UHGV virus genome: UHGV-0274038
Strand: one strand, 5' to 3'
Source of the DNA: a virus
DNA: 24,177 nucleotides
Shown: in pieces, positions 2,058 to 7,863 of the stretch
How positions within the stretch are numbered: position 1 is the first letter of the stretch
How the letters are laid out: the number at the start of each line of letters is the position of its first letter
Notes under the pieces: generated by a model
What the model saw: only the letters and a program-made list of their open reading frames with translations
What the model was told of the DNA's origin: nothing
The model's database searches: none
Program-made: the position numbers and the translations under genes

Positions 2058-3140
2058 TTAGAACTGGTAAACCATACCTACAGCAACGATATCATCGGTA
2101 GCAACGCCAGATGCTTTCGTGAAATCGCTCTTATCAATCAGGTTGATTTTGTAGTCAACAAAAGTGGACATATTTTTGTTGAAGTAATAGGTTGCACCTA
2201 CATCAACATATTCAACCAGGTCCTGATCACCCCAAACACCCAAGTCTTTTCCTTTAGAATGCAGGTAAGCAACGGATGGACGCAGGCCGAAGTCGAACTG
2301 ATATTGTGCAACAGCTTCGAAGTTTTGTGCTTTGTTGGCAATATGGTTATTACCAAAAACAGTCATGTTCTGGGTTTCAGAATAGGTGGTGGCCAGATAG
2401 ATGTTGTTCGCATCATATTTCAGACCAGCTGCCCATACTTCAGCATTTTGACCAGAAGCATTCAGACCGTTGTTACCGTAGATAACCTGATTATTAGTGC
2501 GATCAGATTTAGCATAGGTTGCACCCACGCCGAATCCTTCATACTCATAAGTAGTTGAGAAACCGAAACCATCGCCATTAGCTTCAGTTACTTCATTTCG
2601 GTCATTTTTGCCCTGATACTGAGCTGCAAAGTTCAGGCCATCAACCAGACCAAAGAAGTCGTTGTTACGATAAGTTGCAACACCTGTGGTGCGACCAGTC
2701 ATGAATACATCTGTTTGGGTCCAGGTATCGCCACCGAATTCTGGCAGAACGTCGGTCCATGCACCAATATCGTATGCTACACCGTAGTTACGGCCATAAT
2801 CGATGGAGCCGTAGTCACCGAATTTCAGGCCAGCGAAGGCAAGACGGGTTTTATCTTTGGAGGAACCTTGAGATTCAGCGCGGTTGCCTTTGAATTCATA
2901 TTCCCACTGACCGAAACCAGTCAGTTGATCGTTGATTTGGGTTTCACCTTTGAAGCCAAGACGGGCATAAGTAGTATCACCATCATCTGCATCATTAGAG
3001 GAGAAGTAGTGCTTAGCATTAACTTTCCCGTACAGATCCAGCTTGTTACTGTCTTTATTATAAATTTCAGCTGCCTGAGCAGACATCGCCATCAGTACTG
3101 ATGCAGCTACAGCAGAAATTGCCACTGTTAATTTTTTCAT
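2058..3140 (-). CDS. nmpC: Outer-membrane general porin, NmpC/OmpD/OmpC family (360 aa), prophage moron
   Basis: Signal peptide [23 protein letters not shown] then AEIYNKD...; aromatic-rich beta-strand pattern and C-terminal ...VAVGMVYQF typical of 16-strand porins. Antisense to the phage genes, between Q and the lysis cassette as in DLP12. Confidence 0.9.
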
Positions 3141-3504
3141 CGTGAGCCCTTTTTTTTGAACTATTATTAAAAAATGATGTCACTGCGCGATAAATATTCA
3201 TCTAATCAATGTGATTATTTCAAGATGTAAGTTTTGGTTTCTCGTTTAATTTGTGAAGTAGATCTCTATTTTTATCTGAACTTTTTTCTATCGAATCCTA
3301 TTCATGGCTCTTGGCTGAATAAAAATAAATCTATTAGCCAATTTATATTAATGGCTGTTATTTATAAGTGCTCTATAATTTGAAGGTTCAATTTAAATTG
3401 GCTAAAAATAACGCTGGAAATTATTTGTTGGTTATTTGTTGAGATTTGCTTATGTATTTGTAGTGGTGTTTTCAATACTCGGTAGCATTCTCGCAAATAT
3501 CATT

Positions 3505-3929: not shown

Positions 3930-4426
3930 TGCCTCCATCATTACGAAAAGCTGTTGCTGCTGCTATTGGTGGCGGGGCTATTGCTATAGCATCTGTGTTA
4001 ATCACTGGCCCAAGTGGTAACGATGGTCTGGAAGGTGTGAGACATAATCCTTACAAAGACATAGTTGGTGTATGGACTGTATGTTACGGGCATACAGGAA
4101 AAGACATCATTCCCGGTAAAACGTATACCGAAGCAGAGTGCAAAGCCCTCCTGAATAAAGACCTTGCCACTGTCGCCAGACAAATTAACCGGTACATCAA
4201 AGTCGATATACCGGAAACAACGCGCGGCGCTCTTTACTCGTTCGTCTACAACGTGGGTGCTGGCAATTTCAGAACATCGACGCTTCTTCGCAAAATAAAC
4301 CAGGGTGATATTAAAGGCGCATGTGATCAGCTACGGCGCTGGACATACGCTGGCGGTAATCAATGGAAAGGACTGATGACTCGCCGTGAGATTGAGCGTG
4401 AAGTCTGTTTGTGGGGGAAACAATGA
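3929..4426 (+). CDS. R: SAR endolysin, phage-21 R-type lysozyme (165 aa)
   Basis: N-terminal Gly/Ala-rich signal-anchor-release segment ([18 protein letters not shown]) followed by T4-lysozyme-type catalytic region (GLEGV...D...T). Start overlaps the S stop (TAATG). Confidence 0.9.
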
Positions 4427-4881
4427 GCAGAGTAACCGCGATTATCTCCGCTCTGGTTATCTGCATCATCGTCTGCCTGTCATTGGCTGTTAATCATTAC
4501 CGTGATAACGCAATCGCCTACAAAGAGCAGCGCGATAACAAGGCCAGTGAACTGGAGAAGGCGAACGCCACCATCGCTGACATGCGGAAGCGTCAACGTG
4601 ATGTAGCAGAACTCGACGCAAGATACACAAAGGAGCTTGCTGATGCTAACGCGACTATCGAAAGTCTCCGTGCTGATGTTTCTGCTGGGCGTAAGCGCCT
4701 GCAAGTCGCCGCCACCTGTGCAAAGTCAACGACCGGAGCCAGCGGCATGGGCGATGGAGAAAGCCCAGGACTTACAGCAGATGCTGAACTCAATTATTAC
4801 CGTCTCCGAAGTGGAATCGACAAGATAACCGCGCAGGTTAACTACCTGCAGGAATACATCAGGACGCAATGCCTGAAATAA
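4423..4881 (+). CDS. Rz: Rz inner-membrane spanin subunit (153 aa)
   Basis: [26 protein letters not shown]... single N-terminal TM helix then a coiled-coil periplasmic domain. ATG at 4423 preferred over the ORF-track start at 4411. Confidence 0.85.
4637..4828 (+). CDS. Rz1: Rz1 outer-membrane lipoprotein spanin subunit, embedded in the +1 frame of Rz
   Basis: Signal peptide with lipobox LLGVSAC, then Pro-rich [13 protein letters not shown]. Strong SD AAGGAG 7 nt upstream of the ATG. Lies entirely inside Rz. Confidence 0.75.
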
Positions 4882-4913
4882 TTTTTTTGCAAATCACAAA
4901 GTCCATTTAATGA

Positions 4914-4937
4914 GCCTCGCGATGCGGGGCTTTTTTT
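4914..4937 (+). terminator. Intrinsic terminator ending the lysis operon
   Basis: 7-bp stem GCCTCGC/GCGGGGC (one G-U pair), 3-nt loop, followed by T7 (4931..4937), 33 nt after the Rz stop. Confidence 0.6.
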
Positions 4938-5086
4938 ACATCTGAATTTCACAGCGCATCTCACGCGCATATTACATCACCCGAGCCTTTCAGAAAGTTG
5001 AGCCTGAGAACTGCCGTATATGGTGGCGACCATCTCGGGGCGGCTTTTCTGTGAGACAGGCTCACTTTCTAAAAGGTAAAGACGCT

Positions 5087-5575
5087 ATGAACCAATTAGA
5101 AGAAAAGCTTCAAAGAATGATTTCCTTATACAAGGAAGATAACTGCCAAAAAGTTCCTGAAAACATCGCAGAGTTAATGGAATTGGCAAGTGAATTTTCT
5201 GGCATGCTTAAGTCGTCAGGTGTTCGGTCAGCGTTCTTTGTTGAAATGCTGATGCACGGCGGACTTATGGCAACAATGAGACGTGTAATGGAAGACCAGA
5301 GAAAAGAACCTCCTCAGGTATACGTTTTGTCATCGAAGAAAACTGGGCTAACCAAAATTGGGTATTCATCCAACATTCCACAACGCATCAAATCGCTTGG
5401 CAACTCTGGACCAGACTGCTTGAAGCTTGAGTGCCTGATCCCTGGTGGAAGAGAAACTGAAAACATGCTTCATCGCAAATTTGCCGCAAAGAGAAAGCAC
5501 GGTGAATGGTTCGCCCTGTCCAAGGATGACATTGAGGGATTGAAATCTGTAGCGATTACTTCTGATGGCTATTAA
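5087..5575 (+). CDS. Accessory protein with C-terminal T5orf172 (GIY-YIG-like) nuclease domain and unrecognised helical N-terminal domain (162 aa)
   Basis: C-terminal half QVYVLSSKKTGLTKIGYSSNIPQRIKSLGN...ENMLHRKFAAKRKHGEWFALSKDD fits the T5orf172/Mug113 pattern (YVL...GL-KIG-S...R...E-LH-F...GEWF). N-terminal about 85 aa has no family I recognise. ATG at 5087 with AAAGG upstream; the ORF-track start at 5051 is non-ATG. Confidence 0.65.
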   Translation: MNQLEEKLQRMISLYKEDNCQKVPENIAELMELASEFSGMLKSSGVRSAFFVEMLMHGGLMATMRRVMEDQRKEPPQVYVLSSKKTGLTKIGYSSNIPQRIKSLGNSGPDCLKLECLIPGGRETENMLHRKFAAKRKHGEWFALSKDDIEGLKSVAITSDGY

Positions 5576-5612
5576 TGCTTGTTTAGAGCAATTTTCATAA
5601 CAACTCTTCATT

Positions 5613-5690
5613 ACAAAGCCCATCTACTGGTGGGCTTGATAATGAAACCGTGATTTACATCCCCACAATCCGGGTATGTAAAAGATAGTT
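5613..5690. repeat. Copy 1 of a degenerate direct repeat: hairpin AAGCCCA/TGGGCTT + GATAATG + CCCCACA..GGGTAT..TAAAAGATA
   Basis: Stem 5616..5622 with 5631..5637, then GATAATG 5638..5644. Shares core, flanking motif and downstream CCC-ACA/GGG-AT/TAAAAG blocks with copy 2. Confidence 0.45.
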
Positions 5691-5889
5691 CAGGCGAGAA
5701 CGGATTTAACTAAATCTGTGCGCCACCAGTTAACGGCAGTACCACGAAACAACCCAAGCCAGTAAGTGGGGAAATAACACCGGCAGCCACTGAAAGATGA
5801 ACCTCCTGCCTTATGGCAAAAAAGATTCTTTGTGGTGGCGGACTGATGGAAAGACATCCTAATTTCAGCCAAACATTGAAGGAGTTGTT

Positions 5890-5961
5890 ATGTCAGCAGA
5901 AGGTTTCAATAACCCATCAAAATTCCGGGATGAGTGGGATAGCAGCGTAAAGAGTAAGTGA
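5890..5961 (+). CDS. Small ORF candidate (23 aa, MSAEGFNNPSKFRDEWDSSVKSK) with canonical SD
   Basis: GAAGGAG 6 nt upstream of the ATG. Hydrophilic peptide lying between the two repeat copies. No known family; could be a leader peptide, a small protein or chance. Confidence 0.2.
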   Translation: MSAEGFNNPSKFRDEWDSSVKSK

Positions 5962-5968
5962 TGCCATC

Positions 5969-6060
5969 ACAAAAGCCATTCCCTACAGAGTGGCTTTGAT
6001 AATGGCTTATACCCTACACGGGATAACTTAACTGATATCCCTTTTAAAGGATAAAGGTAT
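5969..6060. repeat. Copy 2 of the degenerate direct repeat, with alternative pairings and a terminator-like hairpin
   Basis: Stem AAAGCCA (5972..5978) with TGGCTTT (5991..5997), then GATAATG 5998..6004. The segment AAGCCATT can alternatively pair with AATGGCTT (6001..6008). Followed by hairpin GGGATA...TATCCC (6020..6041) and TTTT. Confidence 0.45.
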
Positions 6061-6208
6061 TCAAGCCTGACACATCATGCGCTGTATCGTCGCCGTATTC
6101 CCGTATTAACAGAGACCGTAGCCCGACGGGGAACTCCTTCTGCGCGAGTGTGCGGGAATAATCAAAAACGATGCACACCGGGGTTACCGGGTACACATAT
6201 TTCATCAT
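6044..6208 (-). CDS. Hypothetical small ORF (54 aa) immediately downstream of ybcV
   Basis: MMKYVYPVTPVCIVFDYSRTLAQKEFPVGLRSLLIREYGDDTAHDVSGLNTFIL. Starts 45 nt after the ybcV stop on the same strand. No good SD and no recognised family, so low confidence. Confidence 0.2.
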   Translation of the reverse strand: MMKYVYPVTPVCIVFDYSRTLAQKEFPVGLRSLLIREYGDDTAHDVSGLNTFIL

Positions 6209-6253
6209 GCCAGCGAGTCCGGTTCTGGCACGGAAGAAACCGGACGTTATGAT

Positions 6254-6664
6254 TTAGTGCGGAAATATTTGTGTAGTGTTCTGAATGTTCTCAGTAAAGA
6301 GTAATGAATTATCAAAGGTATAGTAATACCTTTTGTTTTCGTGGATATTTGTAATCCATCTGAAAACCCCTGCTGTAGCAAGATTTTTCCTGTATTCGTA
6401 AAATGATAACTCTCCTGATTTGAATCCTTTTAATGTGGCTTCTATAAGGCATTTATTTTTTGAAAATCTTACATTTACAACCTTACCCTGTCCTTTTATT
6501 AAAACCGTATTATCGTTTTCAAGAACAAGATGAATATTCTCTGTGGCTAAATAGTAAATGTAATGTGAGACATTGTGACGTTTTAGTTCAGAATAAAACC
6601 AGTGATAGTTTAAATTATTTCGCACTTTATCGAATATTTGTTTAAAAATGGCAACCTGAGCCAT
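6254..6664 (-). CDS. ybcV: YbcV-like protein (DUF1398), 136 aa
   Basis: [58 protein letters not shown]...[25 protein letters not shown] matches recalled DLP12 YbcV. SD GGAAGG 7 nt upstream of the internal ATG chosen as start. Confidence 0.8.
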
Positions 6665-6721
6665 TGTAGTACCTTCCATGTGATATGAAGGTACCTAGTC
6701 TGCACGATTATCTAAATTGCT

Positions 6722-6955
6722 TCAATCTGGTCTGACCTGCTTTCTGAGCAATTCAGTAATGTCACTCTTTTCTTTGTTTGCTTCAGGCGAAACTCTTTTT
6801 TCTGAGCACAGTCTTCGGCGGCAGGCTTCAATGACCCAGGCTGAGAAATTCCCGGACCCTTTTTGATCAAGAGCGATGTTAATTTGTTCAATCATTTGGT
6901 TAGGAAAGCGGATGTTGCGGGTTGTTGTTCTGCGGGTTCTGTTCTTCGTTGACAT
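6722..6955 (-). CDS. ylcI: YlcI-like small protein (DUF3950), possible ribbon-helix-helix DNA binder, 77 aa
   Basis: MSTKNRTRRTTTRNIRFPNQMIEQINIALDQKGSGNFSAWVIEACRRRL... has a strand-helix-helix pattern. Sits upstream of ybcV on the same strand, next to cos. Confidence 0.6.
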   Translation of the reverse strand: MSTKNRTRRTTTRNIRFPNQMIEQINIALDQKGSGNFSAWVIEACRRRLCSEKRVSPEANKEKSDITELLRKQVRPD

Positions 6956-7099
6956 GAGGTTGTCCCGTATTCAGTGTCGCTGATTTGTATTGTCTGAAGT
7001 TGTTTTTACGTTAAGTTGATGCAGATCAATTAATATGATACCTGCGTCATAATTGATTATTTGACGTGGTTTGATGGCGTAGATGCACGTTGTGACATG

Positions 7100-7343
7100 C
7101 AGATGATAATTATTATCATTTTGCGGGTCCTTTCCGGCGATCCGACAGGTTACGGGGCGGCGACCTCGCGGGTTTTTGCTATTTATGAAAATTTTCCGGT
7201 TTAAGGTGTTTCCGTTCTTCTTCGTCGTAACTTAATGTTTTTATTTAAAATACCCCCTGAAAAGAAAGGAAACGACAGGTGCTGAAAACGAGCTTTTGGG
7301 CCTTTGTCGTTTCCTTTCTCTGTTTTTGGCCGTGGAATGAACA
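7100..7343. promoter_or_regulatory. cos: cos region (cosQ, cosN, cosB with terminase and IHF binding elements)
   Basis: Flanks of cosN match the recalled lambda cos region up to the Nu1 start. Individual R and I elements not delimited. Confidence 0.6.
7155..7166. other. cos: cosN cohesive-end site (GGGCGGCGACCT)
   Basis: Sequence ...CCGACAGGTTACG|GGGCGGCGACCT|CGCGGGTTTT reproduces the lambda right-end/left-end junction with the 12-nt cohesive end, 178 bp upstream of Nu1. Confidence 0.85.
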
Positions 7344-7863
7344 ATGGAAGTCAACAAAAAGCAGCTGGCTGACATTTTCGGTGCGAGTATCCGTACCATT
7401 CAGAACTGGCAGGAACAGGGAATGCCCGTTCTGCGAGGCGGTGGCAAGGGTAATGAGGTGCTTTATGACTCTGCCGCCGTCATAAAATGGTATGCCGAAA
7501 GGGATGCTGAAATTGAGAACGAAAAGCTGCGCCGGGAGGTTGAAGAACTGCGGCAGGCCAGCGAGGCAGATCTCCAGCCAGGGACTATTGAGTACGAACG
7601 CCATCGACTTACGCGTGCGCAGGCCGACGCACAGGAACTGAAGAATGCCAGAGACTCCGCTGAAGTGGTGGAAACCGCATTCTGTACTTTCGTGTTGTCG
7701 CGGATCGCAGGTGAAATTGCCAGTATTCTCGACGGGATCCCCCTGTCGGTGCAGCGGCGTTTTCCGGAACTGGAAAACCGACATGTTGATTTCCTGAAAC
7801 GGGATATCATCAAAGCCATGAACAAAGCAGCCGCGCTGGATGAACTGATACCGGGGTTGCTGA

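Follow-up and report, generated by a model that had tools for sequence, protein, structure and literature searches.

A T5orf172 nuclease gene with an HkbL-like helical module in the post-lysis slot of a DLP12-type lambdoid prophage

The virus genome UHGV-0274038, analysed here as one stretch of 24,177 nucleotides (the window), is a lambda-like prophage of DLP12 type that carries, between its lysis and packaging genes, a gene for a two-domain protein of 162 amino acids. The C-terminal half of this protein is a T5orf172 domain of the GIY-YIG nuclease clan, and we find that its N-terminal half is related to HkbL, a small hypothetical protein of phage HK620. The gene order runs from Q (quuD) through a porin gene and the lysis cassette essD-rrrD-Rz to the nuclease gene, then through the DUF1398 and YlcI genes on the opposite strand to nohD, the terminase genes and the head and tail genes. 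In E. coli EM18-18-42, a tRNA-Arg gene and the intD integrase gene adjoin an identical stretch, and the same layout is found in further genomes. All coordinates below are window positions on the plus strand unless stated otherwise. The left neighbour of the nuclease gene is the gene for the Rz spanin, the last of the lysis cassette (4411-4881), which was placed from the list of open reading frames (ORFs) and from RefSeq-type annotation.

The reading frame, which ends with the TAA at 5573-5575, is open from a GTG at 5051 onwards, and the ATG at 5087 gives the 162-residue product, so that the gene occupies 5087-5575. This ATG is the start used in the RefSeq entry (WP_016245257) and in the record of phage HK106, and where unrelated cargo genes stand behind the same leader their ATG aligns with it. 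The protein, which falls in PHROG 4284, a group to which no function is assigned, is 99.4% identical to HK106 gp64, and phage Chlobot encodes a protein with 100% identity to it. RefSeq already names it ‘GIY-YIG nuclease family protein’, and the core finding of a GIY-YIG nuclease is therefore not new. Exact copies are present on at least 1000 public contigs, and Salmonella commonly carries a form that is 98% identical. Compared with a 76%-identical Klebsiella homologue, the ratio of non-synonymous to synonymous substitution rates (dN/dS) is 0.08 for the whole gene and 0.11 for its N-terminal part; these are rough values with dS near saturation, and they indicate that both halves are under purifying selection. 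The ORF, the RefSeq start and the signs of purifying selection together confirm the coding gene of 162 codons that an earlier, sequence-only reading of this DNA had called at 5087-5575.

The nuclease domain covers residues 77-155 (5315-5551) and is identified by Pfam, by the family alignment and by the order of secondary-structure elements in an AlphaFold2 model. Over residues 78-151 the Pfam MUG113 model scores 56 bits against a cut-off of 22.3 (expectation value, E, 6e-15) and the T5orf172 model 41 bits against a cut-off of 20 (E 2.8e-10), and the generic GIY-YIG model stays below threshold (E 0.19). The homologue gp68 of phage epsilon34 passes the MUG113 and T5orf172 cut-offs as well. These profiles bear out the two-domain layout with a T5orf172 C-terminal half that had been proposed from the letters alone, and every motif quoted in that proposal is present: VYVLSS at residues 78-83, GLTKIGYS at 87-94, QRIKSL at 99-104, ETENMLHRKF at 123-132 and GEWF at 139-142. 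The signature had been placed at residues 88 to 160 or so; the domain call stands, and its start moves to near residue 77. Homologues down to 35% identity keep Tyr79, Lys90-Ile91-Gly92, Arg100 and His129 without exception and Glu140 almost without exception, which agrees with the Tyr, Arg and Glu core that was predicted earlier. The GEWF motif is found in every full-length variant seen but one, in which it reads GGWF. This Glu140Gly change, in a cluster representative from Salmonella (P0002), is a rare variant, and loss of Glu140 as a rule of the family was considered and rejected. The nuclease half is basic, with an isoelectric point of 9.4. AlphaFold2, run on an alignment of 10 sequences, returned a mean predicted local distance difference test score (pLDDT) of 87 and a predicted template modelling score of 0.59, with three N-terminal helices (residues 3-20, 23-43 and 49-71) followed by the order strand-strand-helix-strand-helix-strand-helix. 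By analogy with characterised relatives, we infer that the protein is an active metal-dependent endonuclease.

The N-terminal module is a three-helix bundle that spans residues 1-76 (5087-5314). Modelled alone, it reaches a pLDDT of 92.8. It is acidic (isoelectric point 5.36) and contains 9 methionines, and no zinc-finger or helix-turn-helix features were seen in residues 1-76. Residues 1-85 alone matched no model in Pfam, NCBIfam or PADLOC, and a profile of residues 1-77 searched against 1.84 billion representative proteins recovered only its own family, truncated and decayed copies included. The relationship to HkbL was missed in that search because a score of about 27 bits is too low at such a database size. 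It surfaced when the N-terminal profile was compared with the proteins encoded in the same slot of related phages (n=13), among which HK620 HkbL, of 85 amino acids, scored 27.6 bits by hmmsearch (E 1.8e-9 among the 13 proteins compared). Alignment of the N-terminal profile with an alignment of the HkbL family by hhalign gave a probability of 91.6% (E 8e-7) over 51 columns, and epsilon34 gp68, which is a true homologue of the window protein, matches HkbL by BLASTP with E 9e-11 over residues 5-59. The PHROG groups also match crosswise, HkbL to PHROG 4284 (E 4e-6) and epsilon34 gp68 to PHROG 875 (E 1.4e-6), and the window protein itself reached no direct match to PHROG 875.

On the evidence of these profile and sequence comparisons, residues 1-76 are homologous to HK620 HkbL and PHROG 875, and the module is no orphan. 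The earlier statement that the N-terminus matches nothing recognisable holds for Pfam, NCBIfam and PADLOC and fails overall. The HkbL homology of the N-terminal half is new here, and the joining of an HkbL-like module to a T5orf172 domain is an undescribed domain combination. A search with a combined profile revealed no further HkbL architectures among the matches listed. The earlier reading had also suggested that the N-terminus might be a module for targeting or sensing, of the kind seen in homing endonucleases and exclusion factors. An acidic, Met-rich bundle that has neither zinc-finger nor helix-turn-helix features points to protein contacts rather than to the reading of DNA.

The HkbL-like family comprises at least 138 clusters at 90% identity, from enterobacterial prophages. 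Its stand-alone members are proteins of about 85 amino acids with an acidic, Met-rich core and a basic C-terminal tail, and in 11 of the 11 loci examined their gene lies directly 3' of a gene for a KilA-N+ORF11CD3, KilA-N+P63C or Rha+ANT protein. The two genes overlap or are separated by a gap of a few bases, and this is true outside the post-lysis slot too. Such pairs were seen not only in the post-lysis slot but also in a tail module and an immI-like region; in the coordinates of the individual loci, hkbL occupies 3163-3420 in HK620 (L003) and 3001-3267 in L020-L027, and in L011 it begins at 1104. This constant arrangement suggests that hkbL and the KilA-N or Rha gene upstream of it form a previously undescribed two-gene unit. 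In the window the module is fused to T5orf172 instead of being encoded by a stand-alone gene of about 85 codons, and the gene upstream is Rz rather than a KilA-N or Rha gene. The window protein is thus an HkbL relative at the level of the domain and not a member of the family by architecture.

The DNA to the left (4913-5091) and to the right (5609-5858) of the ORF is kept in many lambdoid phages with another gene between, and on the left the junction of conservation is the start codon. Specifically, the same position holds Rha+ORF11CD3 genes in Stx2 phages, Rha genes in phi80 and phiKp_30, a KilA-N+ORF11CD3 gene followed by the small gene hkbL in HK620, and a KilA-N+P63C gene followed by an hkbL-like gene in HK97 (gp73). 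A Tad2-like anti-Thoeris gene stands there in phage Louie, and E. coli prophages carry Gp49, S1 peptidase, DUF2829, DUF6979 and Bor/Iss genes. Comparison of these loci shows that in lambdoid phages the stretch between Rz and the terminase genes is a variable accessory slot, filled in the window by the nuclease gene. The presence of Tad2-like and DUF2829 genes means that the slot hosts counter-defence cargo. The same position after the lysis genes also harbours diverged nuclease homologues (33-76% identity) in a Klebsiella prophage, in one more prophage contig and in two P22-like phages, epsilon34 and g341c. A 38%-identical homologue (6001-6483 of locus L009) lies instead among apparent tail genes, directly 5' of a gene for a protein of more than 1700 amino acids, and copies in tail modules indicate that such cassettes have more than one insertion point in late operons.

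Several further observations on the slot and its surroundings were made in passing. The Tad2-like (Thoeris anti-defence 2) gene of Louie lies at 2561-3031 of its locus (L004; Pfam E 9e-27). The tail module of Klebsiella prophages contains a KilA-N-P63C + hkbL cassette with the same leader (L024, 2071-3252). The 76%-identical homologue belongs to a prophage of Klebsiella variicola, where its stop codon is overlapped by the start of an Endonuclease_NS gene (L010, 6489-7187) for a non-specific DNA/RNA nuclease, so that two nucleases stand in tandem after the lysis genes. The product of this second gene appears to have an N-terminal signal-like sequence. The DLP12-type prophage of E. coli Ec-042-T20-MAC (L028, 1976-2480) has identical DUF1398 and YlcI neighbours and neither leader nor cargo; its slot holds a 50-residue ORF that overlaps the end of Rz, together with about 350 nucleotides of different sequence. 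Within the window, an OmpC/NmpC-type porin gene (2058-3140, minus strand) lies between Q and the lysis cassette, as is typical of DLP12-type prophages. The DUF1398 (ybcV-like) gene at 6254-6679, with a GC content of 0.315 against 0.533 for the window, and the YlcI/DUF3950 gene at 6722-6955, both on the minus strand between the nuclease gene and nohD, look like low-GC morons.

A position just upstream of the packaging genes raises the idea that the protein is a helper nuclease that assists terminase, like the HNH protein gp74 of HK97, and T5orf172 genes are reported to cluster near terminase genes (PMC10448857). The homologues, however, accompany three packaging systems: the lambda Nu1/A type in the window, the HK97 type in HK106 and the P22 type in epsilon34 and the Klebsiella prophage. 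HK106 already has an HNH gene of its own, and most relatives with the same terminases lack the nuclease gene. Because three different types of terminase are found with the gene, we reject the packaging role, which we regard as barely credible.

The cassette is bounded by conserved non-coding elements. A Rho-independent terminator found by a terminator scan lies just after Rz, at the 5' edge of the leader (4912-4939), with its stem at 4912-4932 followed by a T run. A terminator is annotated at the equivalent place in HK106, epsilon34 and phi80, and an equivalent also precedes the leader in the Klebsiella tail module. Next comes a small conserved GC hairpin, GCGCATCTCACGCGC (4954-4968), which was read from the sequence and is kept across leaders that have different cargo. 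The leader then forms a long composite hairpin (4986-5076; predicted by RNA folding and RNAalifold), in which CCUUUC of the outer stem pairs with the AAAGG Shine-Dalgarno region and an inner GCCG...CGGC hairpin (5013-5044) followed by UUUUCUG is terminator-like. The predicted folding energy is -65.9 kcal/mol (z = -3.4). Of the 30 pairs that RNAalifold gives, most are invariant and one is compensatory, and a 72%-identical Klebsiella leader keeps the structure with a paired insertion; covariation support is thin because most of the predicted pairs are invariant. Rfam yielded nothing at its gathering score for the leader or the right flank, and the matches were at chance level by E-value. The leader, whose predicted fold would occlude the Shine-Dalgarno sequence, could act as a regulatory RNA in cis or as a site for RNase III.

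On the other side of the gene, the conserved non-coding right flank of the slot (5609-5858; delimited by sequence comparison) opens with a predicted hairpin, AAGCCCA-TCTACTGG-TGGGCTT (5616-5637; RNA folding). This flank is 96-98% identical in HK620 and Louie behind different cargo and occurs also in HK97, ST64T and P22. In other phages a 36-nucleotide piece of it (5609-5644) lies directly 3' of the stop codon of hkbL; in Stx2 phages this piece is found alone and is 100% identical. The hairpin piece might mark a module boundary, act as a recombination sequence or terminate transcription on the opposite strand.

A pattern scan of IMG/VR for the leader recovered at least 119 loci, and 111 complete first ORFs after the leader were classified. 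Among these matches, 79 first ORFs were of Rha type, 14 KilA-N, 2 ANT and 12 HkbL-T5orf172; three had no Pfam match and one was of another kind. Comparison shows that Rha, KilA-N and ANT genes of other phages have the same leader and 3' hairpin and lie on the same strand. The leader travels with its cargo, because a diverged leader with its own terminator precedes the KilA-N-P63C + hkbL cassette in the Klebsiella tail module. The window gene has the shared leader, the 3' hairpin and the late-operon position of the Bro-network cassettes.

This company invites the thought that the protein is a non-catalytic regulator of the Bro network, in which T5orf172 would bind DNA and the HkbL-like part a partner, with an antirepressor-like or transcription-modulating effect. 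Such a role would suit a gene that shares its position and leader with Rha, KilA-N and ANT genes and whose HkbL relatives are coupled to antirepressor-type genes, and T5orf172 was first grouped with the DNA-binding modules of Bro and KilA proteins (CapR preprint). Yet the Tyr, Arg and Glu are kept in homologues down to 33-38% identity, one rare Glu140Gly variant aside, and the T5orf172 domains tested so far are nucleases, so we hold a purely regulatory protein to be very doubtful. A bolder proposal, to which we likewise give little credence, keeps the nuclease active and makes the HkbL-like module an adaptor that docks on KilA-N or Rha proteins. The nuclease would then be recruited or activated by the KilA-N or Rha proteins of rival phages or prophages in the same cell and would cut the DNA of a competitor under guidance by protein, not by sequence, the stand-alone HkbL proteins would work with the antirepressor-like protein encoded upstream of them, and the leader would possibly gate all such cassettes.

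The nuclease gene is co-oriented with the late genes and lies behind both the called terminator and a second, terminator-like hairpin. A consensus scan of 4700-7400, which is a crude test, revealed no sigma-70-like promoter near the gene. A candidate read by eye, TTTCAC-N17-TATTAC, was set aside as weak and with a -10 element that is not conserved. In all other contexts examined the homologues lie in late operons. We propose that the nuclease would be made mainly in lytic growth, from a late transcript that antitermination by Q carries past both the terminator and the leader's terminator-like hairpin.

Timing of expression bears directly on whether the gene serves instead as a prophage defence or superinfection-exclusion nuclease, expressed in the lysogen, that cuts incoming phage DNA with the helical module as a sensor or localisation device. 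The accessory slot does host other conflict genes (the Tad2-like gene in Louie, and Bor/Iss), SNIPE provides a precedent for a GIY-YIG nuclease with accessory modules that acts against lambda, and PADLOC returned a weak match to the candidate system PDC-S57 (23.8 bits, E 7e-6). That match, however, is confined to the nuclease domain (profile positions 3-83 of 212) and does not extend over the full length. Furthermore, the protein has no membrane segment (maximum Kyte-Doolittle value 1.02 over 19 residues) and no DUF4041, no immunity partner is evident, and a late-operon gene that follows a called terminator and then a terminator-like hairpin, and for which no promoter is predicted, is poorly placed for expression in a lysogen. 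The free temperate phages HK106, epsilon34, g341c and Chlobot also carry the gene or a homologue of it. We therefore judge a role in lysogen defence to be quite unlikely.

The cassette has moved recently. Between the window and HK106, which has an HK97-like backbone, there is 1 difference in 575 nucleotides over 5038-5612 and the ORF is 99.8% identical, whereas the leader is 86%, Rz 90% and the right flank 95.6% identical; the two phages have different leader variants. A near-identical ORF in diverged flanks implies recent exchange of the cassette between unrelated phage backbones. Exchange of this kind is what a free-standing homing endonuclease would bring about if it cut the equivalent slot or a nearby site in phages without the gene and repair through the leader and the right flank then copied the cassette. 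Several features speak for such an enzyme. T5orf172 proteins are a documented class of phage homing endonucleases, most often found near terminase genes (PMC10448857), and the ORF here is free-standing between conserved blocks. Its distribution is patchy, with the full gene in 80 of 5426 complete E. coli genomes (about 1.5%) against 1477 that have the flanking DNA, the backbones that carry a copy are of P22-like, HK97-like and lambda-like type, and one copy lies in a tail-gene region. The GC content of the gene is 0.43, compared with 0.53 for the window. Decayed, truncated copies are common: several E. coli copies (among proteins P0012, P0015, P0017 and P0018) are cut short after the N-terminal module and continue as unrelated sequence, from which we conclude that the gene decays in some prophages.

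Nevertheless, these features do not single out homing. The near-identical ORF in diverged flanks is a non-specific sign of lateral spread and by itself is no proof of nuclease-driven homing, because nuclease-free cargo of the slot is equally mosaic; Rha, KilA-N and Tad2-like cargo is just as mobile, and ordinary recombination at the shared flanks explains the pattern. No sequence-specific DNA-binding module is recognisable by Pfam, NCBIfam or PADLOC, the only candidate being the acidic three-helix bundle, although an unrecognised mode of binding is conceivable. A clean empty site was looked for and not found; the slots of relatives hold other cargo or a replaced segment. On balance, homing seems to us unlikely, though it deserves to be kept in view.

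Comparison with characterised systems helps to place the protein. The closest characterised analogue in architecture is the origin-directed nuclease Odn (Gp88) of phage ICP1, which joins an N-terminal DNA-binding domain to a C-terminal T5orf172 domain, depends for activity on the Glu equivalent to Glu140, and cuts against the PLE satellites by means of a RepA_N-like domain copied from its satellite target (PMC8263062). Both proteins are phage-encoded, place a non-nuclease module before T5orf172, and keep the Arg and Glu without the helix-1 His/Tyr. The N-terminal halves share no sequence similarity, the RepA_N-like DNA-binding domain of Odn being replaced in the window protein by the acidic HkbL-like bundle. 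The T5orf172 homing endonucleases found in ICP1, in T5-like phages and in others have in common with the window protein the domain family, free-standing phage genes that are often near terminase, and a modular, recombining architecture. They are larger, however, and carry at least one CapR, DUF723 or DUF4397 domain (zinc-finger repeats; PMC10448857), whereas the window protein has none and is 162 amino acids long.

In SNIPE, a GIY-YIG nuclease that acts on lambdoid phages and in which the Glu is essential, non-nuclease modules steer the enzyme (PMC13190303). The window protein has a nuclease of the same type, and in it too specificity would come from a non-nuclease module rather than from DNA sequence. 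SNIPE differs in being a large, membrane-anchored host defence protein with DUF4041, in contrast with a protein that lacks both anchor and DUF4041 and is encoded in a phage late operon. HkbL and PHROG 875 proteins share homology with residues 1-76, the acidic, Met-rich core and the phage slot, but they are stand-alone proteins of about 85 amino acids that have a basic tail and follow KilA-N or Rha genes, unlike the nuclease-fused module of the window, which has no such neighbour. Finally, the Rha, KilA-N and ANT members of the Bro network (the Rha proteins of P22 and phi80, HK620 HkbK and HK97 gp73) have the slot, leader, 3' hairpin and strand in common with the nuclease gene, and T5orf172 belongs to the same domain-shuffling network. 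These proteins begin with a DNA-binding domain of Bro-N, KilA-N or Rha type and lack a nuclease domain, whereas the window protein has no Pfam match to Bro-N, KilA-N or Rha.

The reading that we favour is that the protein would be a late-expressed accessory endonuclease of the Bro/KilA-N/Rha network. Its helical module would provide protein-protein contacts, by which the protein may associate with itself, be auto-inhibited or dock on a partner or target protein, rather than read DNA sequence, and the stand-alone HkbL relatives presumably contact the product of the KilA-N or Rha gene that immediately precedes their own. The role of the nuclease would lie in conflict between genetic elements during the lytic cycle, through the cutting of DNA of co-resident or competing phages, of satellites or of the host. 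To this package of late expression, active endonuclease, protein-contact module and inter-element conflict we give about an even chance, with most of the uncertainty in the biological role.

Several points weigh against it. The His/Tyr usual in helix 1 of GIY-YIG enzymes is absent from the window protein, as it is from Odn. Fold searches with the models returned generic helical-bundle matches or nothing significant and did not retrieve GIY-YIG structures, and a sequence search of the Protein Data Bank found no solved relative; the assignment of the GIY-YIG fold consequently rests on the Pfam profiles and the order of secondary-structure elements. Charge and fold are the sole basis for the protein-contact role of the helical module, and the window prophage has no annotated KilA-N or Rha partner. 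Expression in the lysogen independently of the late transcript may also occur, because the promoter scan was crude and the leader moves with the cassette. Searches of the literature on HK106 gp64, epsilon34 gp68, HkbL and GIY-YIG proteins in lambdoid phages found nothing specific.

The gene itself is ordinary, an annotated GIY-YIG/T5orf172 accessory cargo gene of lambdoid phages of E. coli, Salmonella and Klebsiella. Its interest lies in the HkbL link and the shared leader, which tie a nuclease to the slot's dominant antirepressor-type cassettes, those of Rha, KilA-N and ANT. If it is true that the nuclease acts on co-resident phages or satellites, then it would be an enterobacterial counterpart of ICP1 Odn, and one that lends itself readily to study, HK106 being a laboratory phage. 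Furthermore, the protein could offer a first handle on the HkbL proteins and on the many Rha and KilA-N genes that reside in the late operons of these phages.

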